This document shows, in pieces, positions 1,009 to 52,415 of a DNA stretch of 64,000 nt (position 1 is its first letter; the number at the start of each line of letters is the position of its first letter). The position numbers and the translations under genes were made by a program. The stretch comes from a phage. The stretch lies in the sequence record PZ179880.1; one strand, written 5' to 3'. The notes under the pieces were generated by a model. The model saw only the letters and a list, made by a program, of their open reading frames with translations, did not search any database and had not been told where the DNA came from.

Positions 1009-1739
1009 TCACCGTTATAATCTTTTTTCGCAATATGAGTTTCGCCAGTTTTCCACCAATGGTCAACCAAGTAAAAATGACGGGAATACACATGAAGACT
1101 TCCGACATTCCATATAATGGAACCCGCTTTATACTGGCGAGTTGAATCACCTGCATTCAAATCAGATACTAATTTATCTAGTACGTATTTTTGCCACGCA
1201 TAATCATTGCGGAATCCGAAGACCACGTCATTTGAGCGCATGTTAACTACTGCATTGACTTTCTTATCACGAATCAGATACTGTACTGTATTCGTACACA
1301 TGAAATCTGACATACCATCTTTATTGTAGTCAAACTGCATGGATGGACGAGTATAAATCATGATACCACGCCGAGAATCAGGATTTTGACCAAGTTCAGC
1401 TAAACACATATCATACTGGGCATAGTTATCTTCTGACCAAATAGCCCAACCATAATTCGAGTTAATTTCGCCTTTAGAAGATGCTACCTGCTGCCAAATC
1501 TTTGGTGTTTCACCTGGAATATCTTTAACAAACAAGCTCTTAGATTTATACCATTCAAGTTCGCGCTGAATGTATTCATCATTAAGAGCACCAAAAATAA
1601 ACGGTTCATCTGCTACAAATGATGCGCCAATAATTTCAATAGTTTTAACACCAGTTTTATCAACTACGAAATCTTTTTCTTTTAATGCAAGCCCCAAATG
1701 AAGACGGATTTCTTCAACTGTCATAGAGTCATTAATCAT
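999..1739 (-). CDS. 42: dCMP hydroxymethylase
   Basis: 246 aa, near-identical to remembered T4 gp42 (MI.DSMTVEEIRLHLGLALKEKDFVVDKTG...). Confidence 0.95.
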   Translation of the reverse strand: MINDSMTVEEIRLHLGLALKEKDFVVDKTGVKTIEIIGASFVADEPFIFGALNDEYIQRELEWYKSKSLFVKDIPGETPKIWQQVASSKGEINSNYGWAIWSEDNYAQYDMCLAELGQNPDSRRGIMIYTRPSMQFDYNKDGMSDFMCTNTVQYLIRDKKVNAVVNMRSNDVVFGFRNDYAWQKYVLDKLVSDLNAGDSTRQYKAGSIIWNVGSLHVYSRHFYLVDHWWKTGETHIAKKDYNGEWK

Positions 1740-1892
1740 TTAAACCTCAATTGATACATTCATATTTAACTTGTAACAGTAATAAACTCCACCCTATAAT
1801 AAGCGTTGGAATCATAAGAGGAACCGTTACACTATAGTATATACTTATTATAATCATCAAGATTAAAAGCAACACTGCTATAATTTTGCTTT

Positions 1893-2716: not shown

Positions 2717-5413
2717 TCAGCCAAACAGGAAGTCTAACGAAGCTTTTTCTTCATAGTCCATACCTGCCGATTCACACATACCCGCAAGCGGTTTAACAAA
2801 CGATTTTTGGAACAAAGTTGAGTAGTCAATCCAAGCCAGTACATCAGAACGAATTTCTTTTGGAAGTTCCGTACCCGATGGCCAAGCAATGCACTTGTCA
2901 CCAAATGGATTTCCCTCACGTAATGGAAGAACCATTACCTTATTTCCATCCAAAATTGGAGCTACACCTAAACCACTAACAGCTCGACGATAAGTTAGCA
3001 CACCGCGAATGTGGAACGGGCATTTAAATCCTGGCCAACCTTTATCATCATATTTCGCTATATCATTCGCAGTTTTTACTTCAGCAATAACTTTATAGTC
3101 AAGTTGACGATATTCTTTCTCAAAGTTCTTGTAGTATTCTTGGACAGACTCTTCGCCTTCCTGAAGAATACGACGAATACTTTCTTCGAGAGCTTCTTGT
3201 ACTGCTTTTGGTGTTGAACTCTGCTGAGTTTCCATACCCATGATTTTTAGATGTGGTTCAGCAAATCGCTTATCTTCCATATCATAAACGTTTAGAGCAT
3301 AACGTTTTTTCGCTTTCCAAAATCCACCAACACCCTTTGAACCAAGCGGAGGACAAGAAATAGCTTCACGGTCCATATGCATCAGATGCTCGCGGTTATT
3401 CATATAATCACATAACTCACGATATGCAACATCAATCATAGGTTCCATCTTTTTCTTACCGAACTGATTCATGAATTCAACTAAATCATTTTGTTCTTTA
3501 AAGCGGTCAAGACCTACTTTTTCAATTACTTTATCTACACAAACATATACCGAATCAGTATCACCTGCTGCGATGAAATCTTCACCATCAGTTCCACATA
3601 CTTTATTCAGATATTCATTAATTTTACGAGCAATCCACTGAATACCAACTTGACCAAAAATTGTGATAGCAGTAGCATTTCGCAAATCATAATAGCGGAA
3701 ATGAATGTTACCAAGAGCACCATAAAGACTGTTAATAAGAATTTTACGGTTCAGCTGATTTGTGTTAGCAAGTGTAGCTGCTTTTTCACATTCTTCGATC
3801 AGACTATTAAGAACAGATTCGGTGTAATTCGATAATTCATTTAAGAAATCATCATTGAACTTAACATATCGTTCAACTTCTGGTTTAGTTGAGCAAGACC
3901 CTGCGCCTTTCATAATAATCTTTTTAATAGCTTCGGCATTCATTTCTTCAGCGAACATTTTCTTTTTCCAATCTTTACGCTGGAAAAATACTTTAGCGAT
4001 TTCCTTTGGAATGATACCTTCTTGATGCTTATCGTACATCCATCCATTCGGGGAACAAGAGTACTCATCACTTGGCTTAGGAGCGGTTCCTGCGATATAT
4101 TCATGAATTGGATGAACTTTAAACTGTCCACGAATAGTTTCAGGACTAATGTTAACCTGACGAATAATGCTAGGATACAGAGACGTCAAGTCAAAACTCA
4201 TAATGTATCGACGAGCAATCGGTTTAGGTTCAAATACAAACGCACCTGGAAAACTCTGTTTAACGTGCGAACCTTGTTGAGGAATAACCTTATGTTCACC
4301 TTTCAATGAGTTAAAAATAATAGCATCCCAAGTTTTAATAGGACTCATTACACCAGAAAAAGGCATTTTAGCGTAATAAGACATACTTAAAACTAGATCG
4401 ATAAACCCACGAATTTTATCAATTGCTTGAACTGATTCTACGTCAATGATGTTATAGCTAATGTATCGTTGATGATTAGTCTCACGAAGTTTATTAATAG
4501 GACCATCATACGGTAATTTACCTTTTTTGGTTTCATGTTGAGCAACTGATTCCAAAGAGAATGATGGCAAATTAGTAAATGCGAATTTCTTGTACAAATC
4601 TAAATAATCAAGAATAGATACGCCATCAATAGAATAAATTTCTTTGCTACCGTACATATTTTGAATTAGTTTAGATTTTACTCGACCGATTGGAGAGAAG
4701 CGTTTCATACTACGTTCACCGAGAACCATTTTAACACGATTCATGATATACGGAACGTCAAATCCCTCAATATTCCAACCGGTAAAAATAGCAGGTCGTT
4801 TCTGTTCCCAGAGATTAATATATTCCATGAGCATATCACGCTCATTATCAAATGGCATATAAATTACTCGGTCAAGAATTTCTTGAGGAACTTCATCACC
4901 ACCTTCACAGTCAAGCTTAGCAGCTAACTTTGCATCCCATTTTGATACTGAACCGTACATTGAATTCAACAAATCAAAGACGTAAAAACGGTCGTCAATT
5001 GAATCATAATGAGTGATAGCATCAATTTCATATTCTGCTTTCATTGGGTCAGGAAATTTATCGCCAGTAACCTCAATGTCACAGTTAGCTACACGAACAA
5101 ATTTTCGGTCATAAACAATTTCTGAACCATATGTATCACTGATATAAGCGAGTTTAAAATCGTTCATACCGAGAGCTTCGAGACCGATGTCTTCCATTCG
5201 TTTCATCCAATCTCGGGCATCTTTCATTGATGGAAATTTTTGAGGAGCGCAGTTTTTACCGTAAATGTCTTTGTATTTTGATTCTTCCTTACAATGTCTA
5301 AACATAGTCGGAAGATATTCTACTTCACGAGTACGTTCCTTTCCATTTTCATCAATATAACGTTCAACAATATTATTTCCGACTGTTTCGATAGAGATAT
5401 AAAATTCTTTCAT
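2717..5413 (-). CDS. 43: DNA polymerase (family B) with 3'-5' exonuclease
   Basis: 898 aa, matches T4 gp43 length and sequence (MKEFYISIETVGNNIVERYID...). Confidence 0.97.
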   Translation of the reverse strand: MKEFYISIETVGNNIVERYIDENGKERTREVEYLPTMFRHCKEESKYKDIYGKNCAPQKFPSMKDARDWMKRMEDIGLEALGMNDFKLAYISDTYGSEIVYDRKFVRVANCDIEVTGDKFPDPMKAEYEIDAITHYDSIDDRFYVFDLLNSMYGSVSKWDAKLAAKLDCEGGDEVPQEILDRVIYMPFDNERDMLMEYINLWEQKRPAIFTGWNIEGFDVPYIMNRVKMVLGERSMKRFSPIGRVKSKLIQNMYGSKEIYSIDGVSILDYLDLYKKFAFTNLPSFSLESVAQHETKKGKLPYDGPINKLRETNHQRYISYNIIDVESVQAIDKIRGFIDLVLSMSYYAKMPFSGVMSPIKTWDAIIFNSLKGEHKVIPQQGSHVKQSFPGAFVFEPKPIARRYIMSFDLTSLYPSIIRQVNISPETIRGQFKVHPIHEYIAGTAPKPSDEYSCSPNGWMYDKHQEGIIPKEIAKVFFQRKDWKKKMFAEEMNAEAIKKIIMKGAGSCSTKPEVERYVKFNDDFLNELSNYTESVLNSLIEECEKAATLANTNQLNRKILINSLYGALGNIHFRYYDLRNATAITIFGQVGIQWIARKINEYLNKVCGTDGEDFIAAGDTDSVYVCVDKVIEKVGLDRFKEQNDLVEFMNQFGKKKMEPMIDVAYRELCDYMNNREHLMHMDREAISCPPLGSKGVGGFWKAKKRYALNVYDMEDKRFAEPHLKIMGMETQQSSTPKAVQEALEESIRRILQEGEESVQEYYKNFEKEYRQLDYKVIAEVKTANDIAKYDDKGWPGFKCPFHIRGVLTYRRAVSGLGVAPILDGNKVMVLPLREGNPFGDKCIAWPSGTELPKEIRSDVLAWIDYSTLFQKSFVKPLAGMCESAGMDYEEKASLDFLFG

Positions 5414-5492: not shown

Positions 5493-5861
5493 TTAATTAC
5501 CAATCGTATATTTGGGAACGAGTTTCCATTCATGTTTTTGCTTAAAAGAAATAACTCGGAAGTTATTAGTTAAATCTTTCATAAAAGTTCTTTGACCGGG
5601 AGCGATTTCAATCAGTCCCCAATCTTCTAACAGCCATGCAATCGAATCACGACGAACTTCATCTTCTTCTGTCATTTCAACCTGGCGACCATCCATACGA
5701 AGCATTTCTTTAAAATGAACGATATAGTATAGTCCTTTTTTCTGGAGAATATGACAGGATTGATACAGAACTTTATCTTTATTATTAGCAATTCCCATAC
5801 GAGTCAAAGTTTCTTTTACTTTCAGAAAATCTTCAGGTTTTTTAAGAGTAATTTCAATCAT
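5493..5861 (-). CDS. regA: Translational repressor RegA
   Basis: 122 aa, matches T4 RegA. Confidence 0.95.
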   Translation of the reverse strand: MIEITLKKPEDFLKVKETLTRMGIANNKDKVLYQSCHILQKKGLYYIVHFKEMLRMDGRQVEMTEEDEVRRDSIAWLLEDWGLIEIAPGQRTFMKDLTNNFRVISFKQKHEWKLVPKYTIGN

Positions 5862-5862
5862 T

Positions 5863-6426
5863 TTACCATTCCAATGCTAGTTTTTTGAGTTGTTTCTGTT
5901 CTTTTACGTTCTTAGTCACTTCTTTCAAAAAATCATCCGTGACTAAACCTTTTAGTTCTTTTAATACTAAAGGAAGTTTTCCATTTTTAGTAAGAATTGA
6001 TTTATAGTTAATTGCATCATTTGTATTAACTTGATACCGCTTAGCAAGTAACTTAATAATCAATACTTCGGTAGAATCTTCAACCAGTTTTGCCCATTTA
6101 CCATATCTTTTACCCCGAGGAACAGCAGCCATCAGATAATTAAAATGGGCTTCATCACTTAAACCTGATCCAATTAAATTCATAGCATATACAGCTGGCA
6201 TGCATTCAGGAAATTGTGATAATGCATTCTCAACCATGTATTTTGAATAATCTTTTTGAGCAATAGAGCATTTAGTTTTATTATTAATAGCTCCAATTAT
6301 TTCAAAAAATTCATTTTCAGCTTTTTCTTTAAAAGAATCAGCAGCGGATTGGACAGCTGTCCAATCTTTTGAATACCAAGCAACTTGATGCTCGTTTAAT
6401 TGAATATCATCTTCAAATAAGCTCAT
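5863..6426 (-). CDS. 62: Clamp loader small subunit gp62
   Basis: Start trimmed to internal ATG ([14 protein letters not shown]...) giving 187 aa as in T4; start sits 1 nt after the gene 44 stop. Confidence 0.9.
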
Positions 6427-6427
6427 A

Positions 6428-7387
6428 TCACTTCCACTGCATTTCACATGCCAATTGAATGAAAAGATATGCTAAATGTAATTCAGTATTAGCCGCAATT
6501 CCATGATACTGGTTATTTTCACCAACAATTTCATACATACGAATAATACTTTGCGGAGTTACGCGTGTATAGATTTCTTCGGCAAGTTTACCTACGAACC
6601 ACGAATAATCAGCTGCATATTTTGGTGCTAAAGCTCTGAGCTGTTTAACATCTTTATTTTTGAGAGACTCAAGAACATCATCAATAGCACCACGATCGTT
6701 AGTAACCAGTGATAAAATACCAGCATCCAAAACACCTTTAGATGAATAACTATCGAGCTCACCAATAGTTTTACGAAAATCAGGAAAATTCTTTTTAACC
6801 AAAGCTGCTACAACTTTCATATCAGCTATAGCAATTCCTTCATGCTTACAGATTTCAGTCAATCGACGAATCATCTGCTTCATCATTTCAATTTTATCTT
6901 CATCGGTCGGTTGACCGAACGTAATAACTCGGCAGCGTGACTGAAGTGGTTTAATAATACCATCAATATTATTAGCAGTAATAATAATACTACAGTTTGA
7001 ACTATAAGCTTCCATAAAGGAACGAAGATGTCGCTGAGACTCTGCTAATCCTGAGCGGTCAAATTCATCAATAACGATTACTTTTTGACGACCATCAAAT
7101 GAAGCGGCGCTGGCAAAATTAGTCAAAGGACCGCGAACGAAATCAATTTTACAATCTGATCCATTCACAAACATCATATCAGCATTTACATCATGACACA
7201 ATGCTTTTGCTACAGTTGTTTTACCTGTTCCTGGAGAAGGAGAATGAAGAATAATATGTGGAATCTTACCTTTACTTGTAATAGATTTAAAGGTTTCTTT
7301 ATCAAAGGCGGGAAGAATACATTCATCGATAGTAGATGGACGATATTTCTGTTCAAGAATGTGTTCTTTTTCATTTACGGTAATCAT
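6428..7387 (-). CDS. 44: Clamp loader ATPase subunit gp44
   Basis: Walker A GTGKTT; start trimmed to [17 protein letters not shown] (319 aa as in T4). Confidence 0.93.
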
Positions 7388-28751: not shown

Positions 28752-29015
28752 TTATTTTAATGTTTGCCAAATTTTTACTGCTTCGCGACGAGATACTTCT
28801 ACGGCGCCAAGTTCTATAGCTTTTTGGCGTCGCCGAGCGTGTAAGTCATAATGTTTAATGCGTTTATCTTGAAACCAAGAACGTTTCATTCCTATTGCTT
28901 CTGCCATTTCATGAAGCTCTTCAATATCTCCATCAGTGAACATATGACAATTTTTAGTTGGATGACCGCGAAGTTTCCATCCATGATTCATTAAAACATC
29001 TACGTAAACTGTCAT
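28752..29015 (-). CDS. DUF4031-like small protein
   Basis: 87 aa; motifs CHMFTD ... KRSWFQ ... HYDL recalled as typical of DUF4031. Confidence 0.5.
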   Translation of the reverse strand: MTVYVDVLMNHGWKLRGHPTKNCHMFTDGDIEELHEMAEAIGMKRSWFQDKRIKHYDLHARRRQKAIELGAVEVSRREAVKIWQTLK

Positions 29016-29228: not shown

Positions 29229-29278
29229 AATTTTGTGAAAAATTTTTGAAATAAAAAAGGGAGCCCGAAGGCTCCCTA

Positions 29279-30292
29279 TCATTTATAATAACTTCGGTGG
29301 TTTTCAAGATAAACCCTCTCAAGGAAGTCATCCCAAAAACCCATGTCTACTTTTTGCTGCATACCGTTCTTAGAAGCTTCAGTAGATGCTGCTTCTACTT
29401 GATCGACCACATCTTCCAAAAACTCTTGAACCGTTTTAAATGGATGTTTACCCAACTTCACGTCGAGAATAAATGGAGCATCTTGGAGTGGATAAACCAA
29501 GTCACCAGTTTTGTAAATTTCCAATAGTTGGAGTCCACCACGGCAAGCATGACTCAGAGCTTTCCAGTCAATACCTTCATTGGCTTCGGCCTTACGAGCA
29601 CGTTCACCGTATTCAGCATCTAATTTGTTCAGTGACTGCTTAAGCTCAATAAGAGAAAGCGTTGTCTGATATTTACGACCCAACACTGTGTAGAACGTCT
29701 GTGGGCCTGTTTTCTCATGATTATGGAACACCCATTCACAGAATTCGTTTTCTGGAAGACGATGCTTAATATCTTCAACTTTAGTACGACGCTGCTTAAT
29801 GGAACCGTCTTCTTGGTAATCAACCCATTGCTCAGGGATTTGATTAACTACTTTCAATACATCACGTAATGCAGCCAAACGAGAACCCTTAACGCCGTAT
29901 TTAGAAGCTTGCTTACGGACATATCCTAAATAGGATTTCATGTTAGTCGTATAAAAACGAGAACGGTTGTCTTGAATAAACTTCCACACATCAGGCAAAT
30001 CAGATTTAACCACTAGTTCAGGTGGAGTGTGAAGCATATCTAACGCTACAGTTTCACCATCTGCTGCTAATTTAAAGAAATACTTAAGACTATACAATTC
30101 GTGGTCAATATCATCTTTAGTGTTTTTAGATGATGTGTTGTTAGTGTTTTTACTCATGTGCTCTTTAACATTTCCGATAAGAATATCACGAGCAGGAGGA
30201 ACAAAGATTTCTTTAAAATCTACATCAGATTCTGGGGTAGAAGTTCCATAAAGATGACTACCAAAATAGCTTTTCATTACTGTTTTCATCAT
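29279..30292 (-). CDS. Predicted nucleotidyltransferase (Pol-beta superfamily)
   Basis: 337 aa; N-terminal GS-x10-DxD motif (YGSHLYGTSTPESDVDF). Confidence 0.6.
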   Translation of the reverse strand: MMKTVMKSYFGSHLYGTSTPESDVDFKEIFVPPARDILIGNVKEHMSKNTNNTSSKNTKDDIDHELYSLKYFFKLAADGETVALDMLHTPPELVVKSDLPDVWKFIQDNRSRFYTTNMKSYLGYVRKQASKYGVKGSRLAALRDVLKVVNQIPEQWVDYQEDGSIKQRRTKVEDIKHRLPENEFCEWVFHNHEKTGPQTFYTVLGRKYQTTLSLIELKQSLNKLDAEYGERARKAEANEGIDWKALSHACRGGLQLLEIYKTGDLVYPLQDAPFILDVKLGKHPFKTVQEFLEDVVDQVEAASTEASKNGMQQKVDMGFWDDFLERVYLENHRSYYK

Positions 30293-30750
30293 TCAGCCTT
30301 ATATTCAATAACAGGACATACTTTAGCTTTACGAGCTTTTAAAAATTCGACGATAATCGATTTCTTGGGTTGAATAGGAGGTAAACCTTTATACGCCCTA
30401 TCAATATTTTCTACGTGTAAAGCATAATCCTTTTTCCATTTATAATCTTTATATTTTTCACGCAAATGCGCAGGAATAACAAATGAACCGATAATAAGTA
30501 AAACAAGCAAAATGGCAAGTATAAATGCTGATGGAATAAGAGTCCATAAACTACCAAAAATAAGCCATTTCTGTATGATTTCTGCACAGATGATAGTTAG
30601 ACCTACGAGTATAGTACATCCGAAAAAAGAAACGAAAAATGTAGGGATAACAATAGACCAAAAGTATGCGCATAGTGTCTTAGGTCGTTTCCATTCGTCG
30701 TTAAACATTTTAAATAATTTATAGTGCCAAGAGCTTTCATTAATAATCAT
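30289..30750 (-). CDS. Membrane protein
   Basis: 153 aa with multiple hydrophobic helices. Confidence 0.55.
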   Translation of the reverse strand: MIINESSWHYKLFKMFNDEWKRPKTLCAYFWSIVIPTFFVSFFGCTILVGLTIICAEIIQKWLIFGSLWTLIPSAFILAILLVLLIIGSFVIPAHLREKYKDYKWKKDYALHVENIDRAYKGLPPIQPKKSIIVEFLKARKAKVCPVIEYKAE

Positions 30751-30752
30751 AA

Positions 30753-31274
30753 TTATCCTTTCATTGAAGGTGTAACAGTTGTTAAATACTTAATCATAGC
30801 TTCAGCTTCTGATTTTGATAATGAAATTTCTTCATTGTTTTGACGAATAGAAATAAAATCCGGATGACGGTCACCACCAGCTTTTAAAACACACATATAA
30901 GTATCAGTTTCATCTTCAATATCTGAAATGATTGAAGCAGTTCCACACGAATGTGGTTTTTGATAAATCAATACAGCTTTTCTTCCACCATTTGACTGTT
31001 CATAAACTTTTAATACATCAAACAAATCACTTCTTTTATCAATAGCTAAAATGTTATTTTCATCTTCAATGTTAAATCCTTCGGATACTTCATAAAGTGT
31101 CACCCATAAATCACCTATATCGATAGTAGCATTTTCCTTTCCATGACTTTCAAGAGCATGACAAATTTTCTTAATTTCGTCATAACTCATTTTAATAATA
31201 TCATCTCCTTGAATAAGGAAGATGTCATTTTTAAATTCAACACGAATTAAACCGCTTCCACTTGAAATAAACAT
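30753..31274 (-). CDS. Hypothetical protein (tandem paralogue A)
   Basis: 173 aa; C-terminus EAEAMIKYLTTVTPSM resembles the next ORF. Confidence 0.55.
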   Translation of the reverse strand: MFISSGSGLIRVEFKNDIFLIQGDDIIKMSYDEIKKICHALESHGKENATIDIGDLWVTLYEVSEGFNIEDENNILAIDKRSDLFDVLKVYEQSNGGRKAVLIYQKPHSCGTASIISDIEDETDTYMCVLKAGGDRHPDFISIRQNNEEISLSKSEAEAMIKYLTTVTPSMKG

Positions 31275-31280
31275 ATTTCC

Positions 31281-31835
31281 TCACTTTGAAATCATAGTTG
31301 GAATGACAGAATCAAGATAAGTCTTTAACGCAATAGCTTCGTCTTTGGTAAATGTGACAATATGTGATCGAAAATCGTCAATTTGGCGAATAGTTAAGAC
31401 ATCTCCCTCTTCATAACATTTTGATACATTTAAAAGAGTTTCATCATTCTGATTGCAAGCGTTAGTAATAATAGCATTGCAATTTTTGAGCCATTTTAAA
31501 CTATGTTTTCTTTCATTAGAATAATAAAAATATTTAATCTTAGCTATAAAACTATCCCAATGGATAACTGATAAACACATTGACTCACTTTTAATATTAA
31601 ATCCTGGGCATGAAGAATAAAAATGAATTTTGTGCTCATCATTGATGCTTACTATTTTATCAGTATAAGGATATTCAATTTGGGTTAAATGAATGATTTC
31701 ACTAGGCGTAAAATATAGCATATCGTCTTCTTGCGTCAAACGATACATGTTATTTACTTTTTCTATAGCCAATTCACCAAAAAGCGGACTAACTTCTAAT
31801 ACTAATCGTTTCATATTAATCCTTTTTATTGGCAT
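31281..31835 (-). CDS. Hypothetical protein (tandem paralogue B)
   Basis: 184 aa; C-terminus DEAIALKTYLDSVIPTM. Confidence 0.55.
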   Translation of the reverse strand: MPIKRINMKRLVLEVSPLFGELAIEKVNNMYRLTQEDDMLYFTPSEIIHLTQIEYPYTDKIVSINDEHKIHFYSSCPGFNIKSESMCLSVIHWDSFIAKIKYFYYSNERKHSLKWLKNCNAIITNACNQNDETLLNVSKCYEEGDVLTIRQIDDFRSHIVTFTKDEAIALKTYLDSVIPTMISK

Positions 31836-32094
31836 GAATTTGTTCTAAAATTTTAGAGTATTCCTTTGTATCAGATTTACGTACAATCGATACACTATAA
31901 GGCATACTATCGGTATCTTTTATAAAGCGTTCCAAATGACACTCTAACAAAATTTCTGGGTTATAAATCGTGTACATCAAATTACCTGTTGCTCCACGAT
32001 ATTGACAGATTTCTACTGATTGAGCATCATTCCACAATTTTGTTAAGACTAAATCGCCTACTTCTAATTTAGGAAAGCCCATGTTATTCACCAA
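31816..32094 (-). CDS. Hypothetical protein
   Basis: 92 aa ORF. Confidence 0.45.
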   Translation of the reverse strand: MVNNMGFPKLEVGDLVLTKLWNDAQSVEICQYRGATGNLMYTIYNPEILLECHLERFIKDTDSMPYSVSIVRKSDTKEYSKILEQIHANKKD

Positions 32095-32269
32095 TTAAAG
32101 TTTCAATATAAGAATCAAGATTTACTTTAGCTTCTTCCATAAGAGTTTTGTATTTAATCTTGTTAGCATGTCCGGAGAAAGCTGATTCATCAATAATTGT
32201 TGATGTATGAACAGCTTTACTATACGTCTCAATTAATTCTCTTAATTTAAAAGCCTGCTCACTTGTCAT
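32084..32269 (-). CDS. Small acidic helical protein (small-protein family)
   Basis: 61 aa; N-terminal motif SEQAFKLRELIETY. Confidence 0.45.
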   Translation of the reverse strand: MTSEQAFKLRELIETYSKAVHTSTIIDESAFSGHANKIKYKTLMEEAKVNLDSYIETLIGE

Positions 32270-32430
32270 TACATACTCCTTTGAATAATATCAATAATGT
32301 TGTTCACCAGATTATAAGTAAACATTGGGTAATTATATTGAATCATCACATACACAACAAACAAAACTTTCATTCTCTTCTCCTTGGCAGTTGACAAGAT
32401 TACTATACCATAACCTTGCCAACTTGTAAA

Positions 32431-32604
32431 CCATTAAATGACGTTTTCAATAAAATTCTGAAGCTTTGTATGAGCATCAACCATGATTTTCAATTCTTCT
32501 TTAGCGAAAGCTGTACCTCTTTCACGAGAAGAACATTCATAGTCAGAAACTGCATTAGCATATTCTTCAATTAGCTTCATTAAAAACATCTGCTTTTCAG
32601 TTTT
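32431..32604 (-). CDS. Small acidic helical protein (small-protein family)
   Basis: Hand-translated 57 aa MKTEKQMFLMKLIEEYANAV...; not in ORF track. Confidence 0.4.
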
Positions 32605-32791
32605 CATTATTCCACCTAATCATTTCAAGATATTGAACTAACTTAGCTTTAGATTTATCCAAATCCTTTTTAGCTGCTTCTATACCATCGTATGAATATC
32701 CTTCACAATGCTCAACTGCTAATTGATATGAATCTATTTCAATATCACGTGCTAATTTAATGATTTTTTCAAACTGTTCGCGTGTTAGCAT
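32597..32791 (-). CDS. Small acidic helical protein (small-protein family)
   Basis: 64 aa; MLTREQFEKIIKLARD. Confidence 0.45.
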   Translation of the reverse strand: MLTREQFEKIIKLARDIEIDSYQLAVEHCEGYSYDGIEAAKKDLDKSKAKLVQYLEMIRWNNEN

Positions 32792-32793
32792 AC

Positions 32794-32973
32794 TTACACT
32801 CTCGTATTATGATCGATAATTTCATCAAGAAACATATCTAACGCTTCTACAGCATTATCAACTTTAGCTTCAAATTCTTCAATACCTGATAAGGCAAAGT
32901 TAATGCGTTCCTCATCTGCTTTGCGAATTAAAGCTATCAATTCCTTAATTTTATCCGCTTGTTCAATGCTAGT
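32794..32973 (-). CDS. Small acidic helical protein (small-protein family)
   Basis: Start trimmed to [17 protein letters not shown] (60 aa). Confidence 0.45.
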   Translation of the reverse strand, partial: TSIEQADKIKELIALIRKADEERINFALSGIEEFEAKVDNAVEALDMFLDEIIDHNTRV

Positions 32974-32975
32974 CA

Positions 32976-33164
32976 TTATTCCACCACATATGAAAGAGAG
33001 AATATTGCACACGCCATATGAGTTGCAACTTCATCACACATATCATAACGTTTCTTAAGAAGTTCTACAAGTTCTTCACTAGTGACTTCATCCATGTCGA
33101 CGAAAAAATCACCATTAATGATGACATAGATATTTCCTTCTTGATTAAGTGCTTCAATTTTCAT
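32976..33164 (-). CDS. Small acidic protein
   Basis: Start trimmed to [10 protein letters not shown] with AGGAG ribosome-binding site; ORF-track start lies upstream of the promoter. Confidence 0.45.
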
Positions 33165-33222: not shown

Positions 33223-33259
33223 CGGTAAAATGAAAAAAGTCTCCCGAAGGAGACTAATG

Positions 33260-49842: not shown

Positions 49843-50373
49843 TTAAACTTCTGCTATAATTTTGCCATCTTTTTCTACTTGAAAATACGTATAAGGAATC
49901 GTTGCTGTACATACTAAAGCTGGGTCTGAATCTTCAGTGTAGCTAAATTCTACTTCAGACAGGTCAGAAACCCAAGGCTTATAAAAATTTATTGACATCA
50001 CGATTTCAGTTTTACTATTATCTAAAATGTAAAGCGTAATGTATTCAGGACCTGTTTTTTGGGCAGTATTTTCGCCTGTAAGATAGTTACTAGTTCCTAG
50101 CATCCATTCATACATTCCTATCCACGACTTAAGTTCTTCATCAACTATAAATCTCACGATGAGTGGATCGTACTCAAATGTAACACCTGGACGTTGTGCT
50201 CGGCCCAGTCCAAACGGCCCAGTCACGGTATCAGTAACAGGTATCCTAATTCCTGGAATAGGAACTGACTGAGCATTTAAAGTAAAAGCAGATGTAGTAT
50301 TACTATGCGGTATTGATACTACAAAGTTAGTTGTATTTGCTTGGTTAAAAATTTGTTGTAGTGCTTGCGACAT
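49843..50373 (-). CDS. 3: Tail completion / sheath stabiliser gp3
   Basis: Start trimmed to MSQALQQIFNQ (176 aa as in T4); GAGGAA ribosome-binding site. Confidence 0.8.
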   Translation of the reverse strand: MSQALQQIFNQANTTNFVVSIPHSNTTSAFTLNAQSVPIPGIRIPVTDTVTGPFGLGRAQRPGVTFEYDPLIVRFIVDEELKSWIGMYEWMLGTSNYLTGENTAQKTGPEYITLYILDNSKTEIVMSINFYKPWVSDLSEVEFSYTEDSDPALVCTATIPYTYFQVEKDGKIIAEV

Positions 50374-50479
50374 ATATTCCTCATAATGCTTTATAAATGT
50401 TGGTGGTATAATGGGTCTAAGTCCCTTCCATTCAATTTCAATTAGAACAAACAATAGAAAAGAATGGAAGATAATAGAA

Positions 50480-51154
50480 TTAATTTATTAGACTTCTTAA
50501 ACGAGCAGAAGTCATAAATGGAAATTTTTCTAAAGTTGGCTTTCGCCAATATCTTGGATGACAAGTTGATTTAAAATCAAGAACAATTTTCTTTGCTTCA
50601 TCAATAGTGCTAACTCCAAAGTTATCTAACATTATTTTCTTTTCTTTTTCCCACCGTTTATTAGCTAAAGCAGATTGAAGCTTTTTGTTTTTAAATGTAT
50701 CATTTTTTCTAGAATGAGTTGTGCCTTGTGTCGGACTCCATCCTCTTCCTAAAATAAATCCCTCAGGAATTATATCTCCATCATGCAATTTTATACATCT
50801 TTTACCATTATTATAATATTTTCGTCCAGTTTGTGTATTTGAAATATTATTTGCATGTTTTCTTTTTAACCAACCATAAACTTTATTATTTCTCCTAACA
50901 TATTTAGTTGAAACCGTCATTTTTATGGCCGCATAAGATAATTTTAAAGAATTTGGGTGTATTTTTACTAATAGTTGATGTGCAACATAATGCTCTTCTG
51001 GAGTTAAATCAACCAAGTTAGAAGCATCATTACTACCGCCTAAACATTTCGGAATAATATGATGTCTTTCTTTATATCCAGTAAGGGCTCTATTGCGAGC
51101 CCTATCAATTAGTGAATTATAAATTTTTTCATAATTCATCGTACATTGCTCCAA
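50480..51154 (-). CDS. HNH homing endonuclease (free-standing)
   Basis: 224 aa; motif [36 protein letters not shown]; inserted between genes 3 and 2. Confidence 0.8.
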
Positions 51155-51963
51155 ACTTTGTTTGCAGAGAAACGTTTTCCTTTGGAGTAGAAGCTTTGGA
51201 GTGGCATTAACACAACGTTCGCCCAGTCTTTCGGGGCGATTTCAACAAGGCTACCCATGATATTACCAGGTATATATGCCTTAATCATTTGATCTGCACC
51301 CCTAAATCCTTTCACTTGACTCCAATCAATTTTTAATTTCGTTTTATTAGTAATAGTAGGTGTATTTGAATATTGCTTTAAAAGCTCTTCTAGAAACTGT
51401 TGACGAGCTTTAGGTGGAATATAGTGCAAGTTCAATCCATACATTAAATTATGTTTACCTAAACCGAGGTAAATTATCAAAGGAAATTTATCCCAATAAG
51501 GAAGAGTTTCCTTGTGTTTAGCATCGTAAGCAAAAGCATATATTCGTCCCGGCTGCGGGCGAACAACTTTATGTCCTTTTACCTGCTTAATAGTTTCAGC
51601 AAACCACTTTCTGGTTTTATTATTAATTGCTGCACCTTCATTACGAATTTTATCACGCAACGTTTGCCTGAATGAATTTATCATAAGCAGTTGTCTTTCT
51701 TGCTTATTGAGTTTATTCATTGGTTTTGATTCAAGCTTTTGAATCTTTTCAGCTGTTTTAATTCCTGAAGCATATTTTGACATTGCCGAAGTAAACGTAG
51801 AATATTTAATTCCTTTTTCTTCAGCAAATTGCTTTCCTGTCATTCCTTTTGCTTTGGCCTTTTTGTATTCAAGACCTATCTGAATCCATTTCTTTTCGTT
51901 TAATGATTGCTTAACCTTTGGAACTTGGGGAGTGCTTTCATTAATTATTTGAAAAATAGCCAT
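51136..51963 (-). CDS. 2: DNA end-protector protein gp2
   Basis: 275 aa basic protein at the T4 gene 2 position. Confidence 0.8.
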
Positions 51964-52415
51964 TATGCCCCCTTAAAGCCAAGAGCTCGTAATCCATCTT
52001 CTGTTAAAATTCTAAATTTTATTCCACGCTTTTCAGCTAAAGATTGTGCTGCTTTCCATTTGTCAGTATTAACGGAATATGTATAGATTTCATTCATAAA
52101 TCTTTTCTTCGCTGCAGTTGTTAGATGTGCTGGTTTAACTGGTGGTTGTGTTTCTTTTTTAGGTTTTATTTCAATAAAAAATTCTTGTCCAGAAGAATCT
52201 TTCATCCAAATATCCATGAAGTATCTACGTTTTTTCCCTTCTGCATTACAAAAATAAGGAATTACTGCTGTTTCACTACCCCATGCAATAATTTCTGGAT
52301 TTTTATCTAACCATTCAAAAAAGAATTTTTCCCAATTTGATCTATACGTAATTTTTTTAGGGTCACCTCTATATTTTGATATATTTTTAGGAACCCATTT
52401 TCCAGAATATGCCAT
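51963..52415 (-). CDS. 4: Head completion protein gp4
   Basis: 150 aa as in T4; late promoter upstream. Confidence 0.85.

Follow-up and report, generated by a model that had tools for sequence, protein, structure and literature searches.

Within a stretch of 64,000 nucleotides of phage DNA (PZ179880.1; hereafter the window), two adjacent genes on the minus strand encode proteins whose C-termini carry the same motif. The protein of the downstream gene (B, 30753..31274, 173 aa) ends in ...SKSEAEAMIKYLTTVTPSMKG and that of the upstream gene (A, 31281..31835 as the longest open reading frame, 184 aa) ends in ...TKDEAIALKTYLDSVIPTMISK. The locus raises the question of whether the two proteins are related beyond this motif, how they came to lie side by side and what they might do next to a gene for a membrane protein. 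The source of the window is a Tequatrovirus (T4-like phage): its segment 30200-32200 matches many Tequatrovirus genomes at 97-98% identity, with 507 records found in a nucleotide search and 360 of them covering at least 80% of the query, and its base composition is AT-rich (~35% G+C). It is proposed, with an overall probability of about 0.7 that applies mainly to the identity claims, that A and B are tandem paralogues of the T4 MobD.1/Y05I family and are homologous end to end.

The two reading frames of the preliminary description, their adjacency and their like C-termini are borne out, as is the length of B; the 184 aa given there for A belong to the longest reading frame only. Translation of A would more likely start at the ATG at 31814 (31281..31814, 177 aa), since this codon is preceded by an AAGGA Shine-Dalgarno sequence and lies 1 nt past the stop codon of the upstream gene, and the orthologue of A is annotated in RefSeq NC_054944 as 177 aa. 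The alternative ATG at 31835 falls within the upstream gene and lacks a Shine-Dalgarno sequence. That upstream gene (31816..32082, minus strand, 88 aa) encodes a Phage_tudor protein (Pfam PF24144, E 5e-40); in part of the loci examined a tudor gene stands upstream of the y05I gene, and T4 has no tudor gene. On the other side of A, the Shine-Dalgarno sequence of B (GAGGA) overlaps the stop codon of A. The neighbouring membrane-protein gene also proved real: it is a 153-aa reading frame (30289..30750, minus strand) that starts 2 nt past the stop codon of B, matches phrog_944 ('membrane protein') and encodes two strongly hydrophobic stretches (residues ~25-66 and 62-98) plus a basic tail (net +7); its stop codon overlaps the start of nrdC.11.

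Further minus-strand genes near A and B are tk, rI.1, rI, rI.-1, a row of small 'mobD.x' genes, nrdC.11 and nrdC.10. The spacers are tight: A and B are separated by TGAGGAAATATG, B and the membrane-protein gene by TAATTATG, and the latter gene runs into nrdC.11 through an ATGATG overlap. This packing suggests co-transcription and translational coupling. A promoter-like site, GTTTACA-17-TGGTATAGT (32402..32430, minus strand), scored 10 of 12 consensus positions with a TG in a consensus scan and is present in T4 with two mismatches; it is read as T4-early-like, its promoter function being inferred from the sequence. It is the probable start of a unit comprising mobD.2, a DUF7438 gene, the tudor gene, A, B, the membrane-protein gene and nrdC.11, and the probable end of the A/B transcription unit is a terminator-like GC-rich hairpin with a T run located after nrdC.11 (29258..29277, minus strand).

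The similarity between A and B extends over their full length. In BLASTP, residues 3-171 of B pair with residues 15-181 of A over 175 columns (26% identity, 49% positives, E 8e-8), and the Smith-Waterman score of 87 compares with 31 ± 5 in 2000 shuffles (z = 11). Removal of the last 25 residues lowers z to 5.4, a score that 2 of 2000 shuffles reach, and in a half-by-half comparison the N-terminal halves give z = 6.1 and the C-terminal halves z = 6.2. The N domain (~31515..31805 in A, ~30990..31271 in B; minus strand) matches Pfam T4_y05I_N (PF24449, gathering cut-off 24.9) with 133.1 bits (E 6e-39) for A and 113.9 bits (E 6e-33) for B; the C domain (~31293..31502 in A, ~30762..30971 in B; minus strand) matches T4_y05I_C (PF24448, gathering cut-off 27) with 74.9 bits (E 6.6e-21) and 83.1 bits (E 1.9e-23), respectively. 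Both proteins also match phrog_1502 (A, E 3e-80; B, E 2.6e-66). The significant full-length alignment, together with the Pfam domains and the PHROG common to both, shows that A and B are paralogues, with stronger support than the preliminary description had supposed, and its statement that the two proteins differ outside the motif does not stand. We attach practically no weight to the notion that A and B are unrelated and owe a short C-terminal likeness to chance or convergence; it was rejected because the alignment is significant over its full length, without the last 25 residues and for the N-terminal half alone, both Pfam domains lie above the gathering threshold in both proteins, and a natural fusion described below joins the two genes in register.

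Paralogy places both proteins in a known family. A is 87.5% identical to T4 MobD.1 (tblastn) and syntenic with T4 mobD.1, and is the orthologue of T4 MobD.1 (Y05I). B shares the two-domain architecture and the PHROG of MobD.1, but it is only distantly related to A, as the identity given above indicates, and has no T4 counterpart. The pair lies where synteny in Tevenvirinae places the family, with the mobD.2-5 small genes on one side and nrdC.11 on the other. Pfam and PHROGs already list the family, which is present in hundreds of sequenced T-even phages, and A and B are nothing categorically new. In the literature searched, mobD.1 appears once, as a locus landmark, a search for 'y05I' gives unrelated papers only, and neither A nor B matches the PADLOC and NCBIfam models for defence and anti-defence.

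The C-terminal motif that drew attention to the pair corresponds to DEAIALKTYLDSVIPTM in A (31293..31343, minus strand), where the helix is assigned by homology to the model of B, and to EAEAMIKYLTTVTPSM in B (30762..30809, minus strand), where it forms the C-terminal helix at residues 55-72 of the C-domain model. Aligned across the family it reads (T/S)K.EA.AL..YL(N/T/D)(S/T)V(I/T)P(T/S)M, a stretch better conserved than any other in the family, in which E, Y, L, V and P are conserved family-wide. Between A and B, the C-terminal helix is simply where the likeness is easiest to see. All 20 aligned relatives match T4_y05I_C in a Pfam scan, and many family members are stand-alone C-domain proteins of 67-87 aa that carry the motif; these came from an exhaustive profile search of 1.84 billion representatives, and a separate profile search for homologues missed them. 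The exhaustive search returned only 28 clusters, indicating a narrow family. The motif is thus not peculiar to this pair: no element is more conserved across the T4_y05I_C family as a whole, and it is the family hallmark and, as modelled, the amphipathic C-terminal helix of a C domain of ~70 aa.

The distribution of the domain points in the same direction. Full-length single y05I copies occur in Mosigvirus, Gaprivervirus and Dhakavirus, and C-only copies in Tegunavirus, Kagamiyamavirus, Winklervirus, Moonvirus, Jiaodavirus and an Enterobacter phage. Gelderlandvirus has two tandem C-only copies, and one genome of this genus has the whole block of tudor gene, C-domain gene and membrane-protein gene duplicated; in a neighbour-joining tree the two Gelderlandvirus copies are not assignable as orthologues of A and B. 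By this distribution, the C domain is the ancestral core and the N domain an add-on, and tandem copies arose or persisted on more than one occasion. In 16 of 16 loci examined from other phages that carry the phrog_944 membrane-protein gene, a gene with y05I_C lies directly upstream of it, often overlapping it, on the way to nrdC.11. The phrog_944 profile has ~85 extra N-terminal positions, which was the reason for a search for 'Rosetta stone' fusions of y05I_C with the membrane protein; none was seen by tblastn across 923 records, in which nearly all matches cover only the ~150-aa protein.

Comparison with T4 reveals what became of B in that phage. The T4 gene order is nrdC.11, mobD (an HNH homing endonuclease) and mobD.1, and both B and the 153-aa membrane-protein gene are absent. 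In an alignment, the window and T4 remain identical to the end of mobD.1, across the intergenic Shine-Dalgarno sequence and over the first 19 nt of B (ATGTTTATTTCAAGTGGAA, encoding MFISSG), a stretch (31256..31280, minus strand) that T4 has retained directly upstream of the mobD cassette as TGAGGAAATATGTTTATTTCAAGTGGAA, the Shine-Dalgarno sequence of B plus six codons. Past these six codons T4 diverges into a 23-codon reading frame and mobD, and homology resumes at the start codon of nrdC.11. Since T4 keeps the ribosome-binding sequence and first codons of B, T4 descends from a B-bearing phage in which the mobD cassette took the place of B and the membrane-protein gene. The free-standing mobD cassette, whose position in the T4 locus is documented (PMC2988022), sits in T4 at exactly the A/B locus between nrdC.11 and mobD.1, but it has no sequence relationship to A or B, and there is no mobD at the A/B locus of the window. 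T4 also lacks the part of the window at 31813..32257 that holds the DUF7438 gene and the tudor gene (a 445-bp indel).

The survey of related phages envisaged in the preliminary description gives B in 501 phage records (434 at at least 80% identity), A-type genes in 729 and the membrane protein in 923, and mobD at 95% identity or more in only ~47. The presence of B and the membrane-protein gene is the common state in Tequatrovirus; T6 has kept the membrane-protein gene at least. In T2, both copies are broken into frameshifted pieces, and viable genome-reduced T4 mutants had lost the nrdC.11-mobD.3 fragment (PMC9825161). The A/B module is therefore accessory under laboratory conditions.

The locus has been reshuffled in other phages as well. 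A single gene of 179 aa fuses the N domain of A, up to ...NDET, to the C domain of B, from DTYMCV... onward; this fusion protein (P0011) is found in six metagenomic contigs and in Shigella phage SP21535, and its gene is the only copy, lying between the tudor gene and the membrane-protein gene. Mapping of the junction places the joint at the 9-nt word GATGAAACT, which is in register in both genes (31437..31445 in A, with the blastn break point at 31437; 30906..30914 in B, with the break point at 30914; both on the minus strand), and the sequence between the two words is deleted. Relative to phage Kelasse, DNA similarity is lost from 32080 to 31416 and is 95-96% on either side, an allele swap that takes in the tudor gene and the N domain of A and has a break point inside the C domain of A. 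The distances between alleles differ by domain, at 0.65 for the N domain vs 0.40 for the C domain among A alleles and 0.69 vs 0.18 among B alleles, which makes the N domain the fast-evolving part and the C domain the conserved one.

As to the age of the pair, global nucleotide identity between A and B is 52%, and identity at third codon positions is ~0.3-0.5, running from 0.27 to 0.67 across alignment blocks, and ~0.3 within the motif. The only 9-nt words that the two genes have in common in register are AGGATTTAA and the crossover word GATGAAACT. Neither residual nucleotide similarity nor unsaturated synonymous sites, the marks of a recent tandem duplicate, are found between A and B. The low nucleotide identity and the third positions at random level suggest that the duplication is old. 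Gene conversion was considered as the cause of motif conservation and rejected, third-codon identity within the motif being at the random level; the motif is instead kept by purifying selection on the protein.

Local duplication followed by divergence, as put forward in the preliminary description, is only one of the ways in which an old pair could have arisen. In a rough neighbour-joining tree, built like the others on ~70-100 saturated positions, A groups with the single-copy orthologues of Mosigvirus and Gaprivervirus in a clade that leaves B outside, and B itself occurs as two alleles that are ~57% identical. The sequences leave three options for the origin of B, namely an ancient duplication followed by losses, accelerated evolution of B, or the import of a distant relative. 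In the last case B would be a xenologue, a distant family member brought beside A by recombination with another T-even-like phage. The branching of B outside A and the single-copy orthologues, the existence of two divergent B alleles and the mosaic character of the locus (the Kelasse allele swap, the replacement by mobD in T4, the 445-bp indel and the fusion genes) are all consistent with such an import. However, no donor lineage with a single B-like copy was found, B-type matches being essentially confined to Tequatrovirus; the tandem C-domain copies of Gelderlandvirus, in the same position, fit an old in-place duplication with later losses; and faster evolution of B could yield the same tree. 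We regard import as possible but rather doubtful.

Structure prediction, likewise envisaged in the preliminary description, gave models of both domains. AlphaFold2 models the N domain of full-length B with a pLDDT of ~90 as bbbba-bbbba (E,E,E,E,H,E,E,E,E,H), and the C domain in the same model has a pLDDT below 50; modelled alone with a deeper alignment, the C domain of B reaches a pLDDT of 85 and shows five strands followed by a long C-terminal helix that is the motif. In a Foldseek search against the PDB the full-length model has repeats I-II of human PURA at rank 1 (probability 0.96, with a weak E of 0.057), and later matches include other Whirly-like folds, namely 2it9, 2nvn and SsgA/SsgB (3cm1, 6slc; E 0.2-0.4). 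The C-domain model has MoSub1/PC4 at rank 1 (probability 0.96, TM 0.52), with repeat III of Drosophila Pur-alpha at rank 7 and Borrelia Pur-alpha at ranks 16 and 32 (TM 0.56-0.58) lower down; the fr and MS2 coat proteins are also in this list, among unrelated matches. The statistical significance is weak, with E values of 0.32-3.5 for the C domain and TM values of 0.33-0.58 over both models.

At the sequence level, searches of the PDB with single sequences (phmmer) and with two profiles gave no meaningful link to solved structures, and a Pfam scan of 20 members gave the y05I domains and a sub-threshold DUF7189 only, with no PurA, Whirly or PC4. A fold search of BFVD returned only family members and uncharacterised Bacillus-phage proteins. 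An origin of the whole protein from three repeats was considered and is unsupported: hhalign aligned only repeat 1 with the C domain (E ~1e-3, probability 22%, suggestive only) and gave nothing for repeat 1 against repeat 2 or for repeat 2 against the C domain.

The predicted folds resemble Pur-alpha in having a double bbbba domain followed by a single repeat, a likeness that is consistent across both domains and statistically weak. PC4-like domains have been divided into 'type I' (intramolecular), the kind matched by the N domain, and 'type II' (dimerising), the kind matched by the C domain, and the fold class typically binds single-stranded nucleic acids; it is stated that no protein has both types, one known exception apart, and Pur-alpha is then discussed under proteins with both (PMC7549692). 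The predicted architecture of A and B is like that of Pur-alpha (PURA), an intramolecular double bbbba unit and then a single bbbba repeat, but the phage proteins are acidic, are only about half as large, have no detectable sequence similarity to it and give weak structural E-values. The C-domain model matches best the single-repeat 'type II PC4-like' dimers, namely the C-terminal domain of PC4/Sub1 and Pur-alpha of Borrelia burgdorferi (Bpur). Like both of these, the phage C domain also exists as a stand-alone form of ~70 aa; its model has five strands vs the canonical four, and PC4/Sub1 and Bpur bind nucleic acid, whereas the phage family is acidic and has no sequence relationship to them.

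These models allow a mechanism to be proposed. The N domain would be an intramolecular pair of bbbba repeats and the C domain a single such repeat. In PC4, Sub1, Borrelia Pur-alpha and repeat III of Pur-alpha, a single repeat is completed only by dimerising with a second copy. By analogy with these single-repeat PC4-like proteins, and given that stand-alone C domains exist, the C domain may be a dimerisation module whose motif helix packs on the sheet of the partner, giving A-A, B-B or A-B dimers that each display two variable N domains; we put the chances of this arrangement at about even. An A-B heterodimer cannot be obligatory, since the single-copy genomes of T4, Mosigvirus and Gaprivervirus manage without the second paralogue. 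Specificity would be provided by the variable N domains.

What the dimers might bind is a matter on which the fold and the charge pull apart. One reading takes A and B as Pur-alpha/PC4-like regulators of transcription or RNA that bind single-stranded DNA or RNA, the paralogues differing in sequence specificity. It would agree with the Pfam name 'putative transcription factor', with the structural matches to PURA repeats I-II, MoSub1/PC4, Pur-alpha repeat III and Borrelia Pur-alpha, with the usual ligands of the fold class (PMC7549692) and with a likely early transcription unit. However, the whole family is acidic: the net charge is -5 for A, -12 for B and down to -22 in relatives, with pI values of 4.2-5.7, figures that describe bulk charge only. 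The invariant residues are mostly hydrophobic or in the helix rather than basic or aromatic residues of the sheet, and the structural scores are weak and come with no sequence-level link. Among the matches there are, moreover, proteins of the same fold that have no nucleic-acid role. SsgA and SsgB, which act in actinomycete cell division, use the Whirly-like fold for protein-protein contacts and not for nucleic-acid binding; with weak scores and an unrelated biology, they serve as an analogy only for the N domain. Taken together, nucleic-acid binding seems to us unlikely.

We favour over it, tentatively and with somewhat less than even confidence, a role in binding or mimicking proteins or as a decoy, possibly at the membrane protein, within a host-interaction module that is non-essential and expressed early, inferred from the acidity of the proteins and from the position of the C domain, which is always encoded directly upstream of the basic-tailed membrane protein. 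The adjacency by itself says little about a physical interaction, because gene order is generally conserved in T-even phages. A more specific version of the protein-binding role can be imagined, in which A and B pair via the C-terminal repeat, A-B heterodimers included, and attach to the basic cytoplasmic tail of the membrane protein, and in which the N domains, hypervariable and cassette-like, bind host targets or mimic them, so that the module could be swapped for host range or counter-defence. This version is a long shot; if true, the locus would be a swappable host-range or counter-defence module that T4 and T2 have lost.

The importance of these observations is modest. What is new is the scar of B in T4, the in-register fusion, the conserved linkage between the C domain and the membrane-protein gene and the predicted Pur-alpha-like architecture. 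T4 is atypical at this locus, in that mobD has replaced B and a widely conserved membrane-protein gene and only a six-codon scar remains, and since T4 lost both genes, work on T4 only cannot show the role of the module. An orphan family thereby gains a concrete hypothesis, in which a Pur-alpha-like architecture would combine a dimerising C-terminal repeat with a variable N domain.

Directly upstream of the Phage_tudor gene and of the tandem pair A (the T4 MobD.1 orthologue) and B (its paralogue without a T4 counterpart) lie four small tandem genes of 57-64 aa on the minus strand (window 32084..32976), all four of which match the Pfam family DUF7438 (E 5e-13 to 1.5e-17). Judged by sequence, these genes (32084..32269, 32434..32607, 32597..32791 and 32794..32976, each on the minus strand) are a second tandem paralogue array, larger than A/B, in the transcription unit proposed for A/B; further DUF7438 copies occur past tk in related loci, at the tk.1/tk.2 positions. 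The first gene downstream of the early-promoter-like site is the T4 mobD.2 homologue (32269..32373, minus strand), which has a strong Shine-Dalgarno sequence (AAGGAG) and encodes a 34-aa hydrophobic peptide (MKVLFVVYVMIQYNYPMF...) with no Pfam match.

A 445-bp block (window 31813..32257) comprising one DUF7438 gene and the Phage_tudor gene is missing from T4, where the corresponding position is 7815..7818 of L002, and a similar block (window 32258..31826) is absent from T2. In Gelderlandvirus loci the y05I gene, the MobD.1-family gene, is preceded by a Phage_tudor gene. The Gelderlandvirus Salmonella phage SEA1 (OQ927978.1) carries the entire block, consisting of a Y05J-like peptide, small ORFs, Phage_tudor, y05I_C (the family's C domain) and the phrog_944 membrane protein, in two tandem copies (2902..4960 and 5535..6987), and the related contigs L008 and L009 each carry a single copy of the SEA1-type block. 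In Klebsiella phage JD18 the 63-aa ORF (1596..1787) immediately upstream of the y05I_C gene has a C-terminal end (...SRIVLKQGNDIIHLDTKQIDSLIKFLIEAKDGE) that by eye recalls the C domain's strand-Q-D-strand-helix arrangement; the ORF gave no HMM match at E < 1, and may represent a second, highly diverged copy.

Name-propagation errors are common at this locus in public records, including NC_054944, other RefSeq records and mobD.4 of T4 (NC_000866). MobD.x homologues are misnamed 'molybdopterin-guanine dinucleotide biosynthesis protein MobD', a 61-aa DUF7438 gene 'helicase loader' and, in several GenBank records, nrdC.11 'thioredoxin', and the T6 and ADUt annotations mislabel the membrane protein as 'prohead core protein'.

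The mobD.x-nrdC.11 gene block is bracketed by two perfect GC-rich hairpins (window 29258..29277 and 33238..33255), which have terminator scores on both strands. Farther along the window, GC skew changes sign at about 50000..52000, being negative before about 52 kb and positive after, which is consistent with a switch of the predominant coding strand. Between nrdC.11 and nrdC.10 lies a gene for an 87-aa DUF4031 protein (28752..29015, minus strand; E 1.5e-21); this interval, which holds no gene in T4 and a Mod-like ADP-ribosyltransferase gene in T2 and some contigs, is another variable slot.
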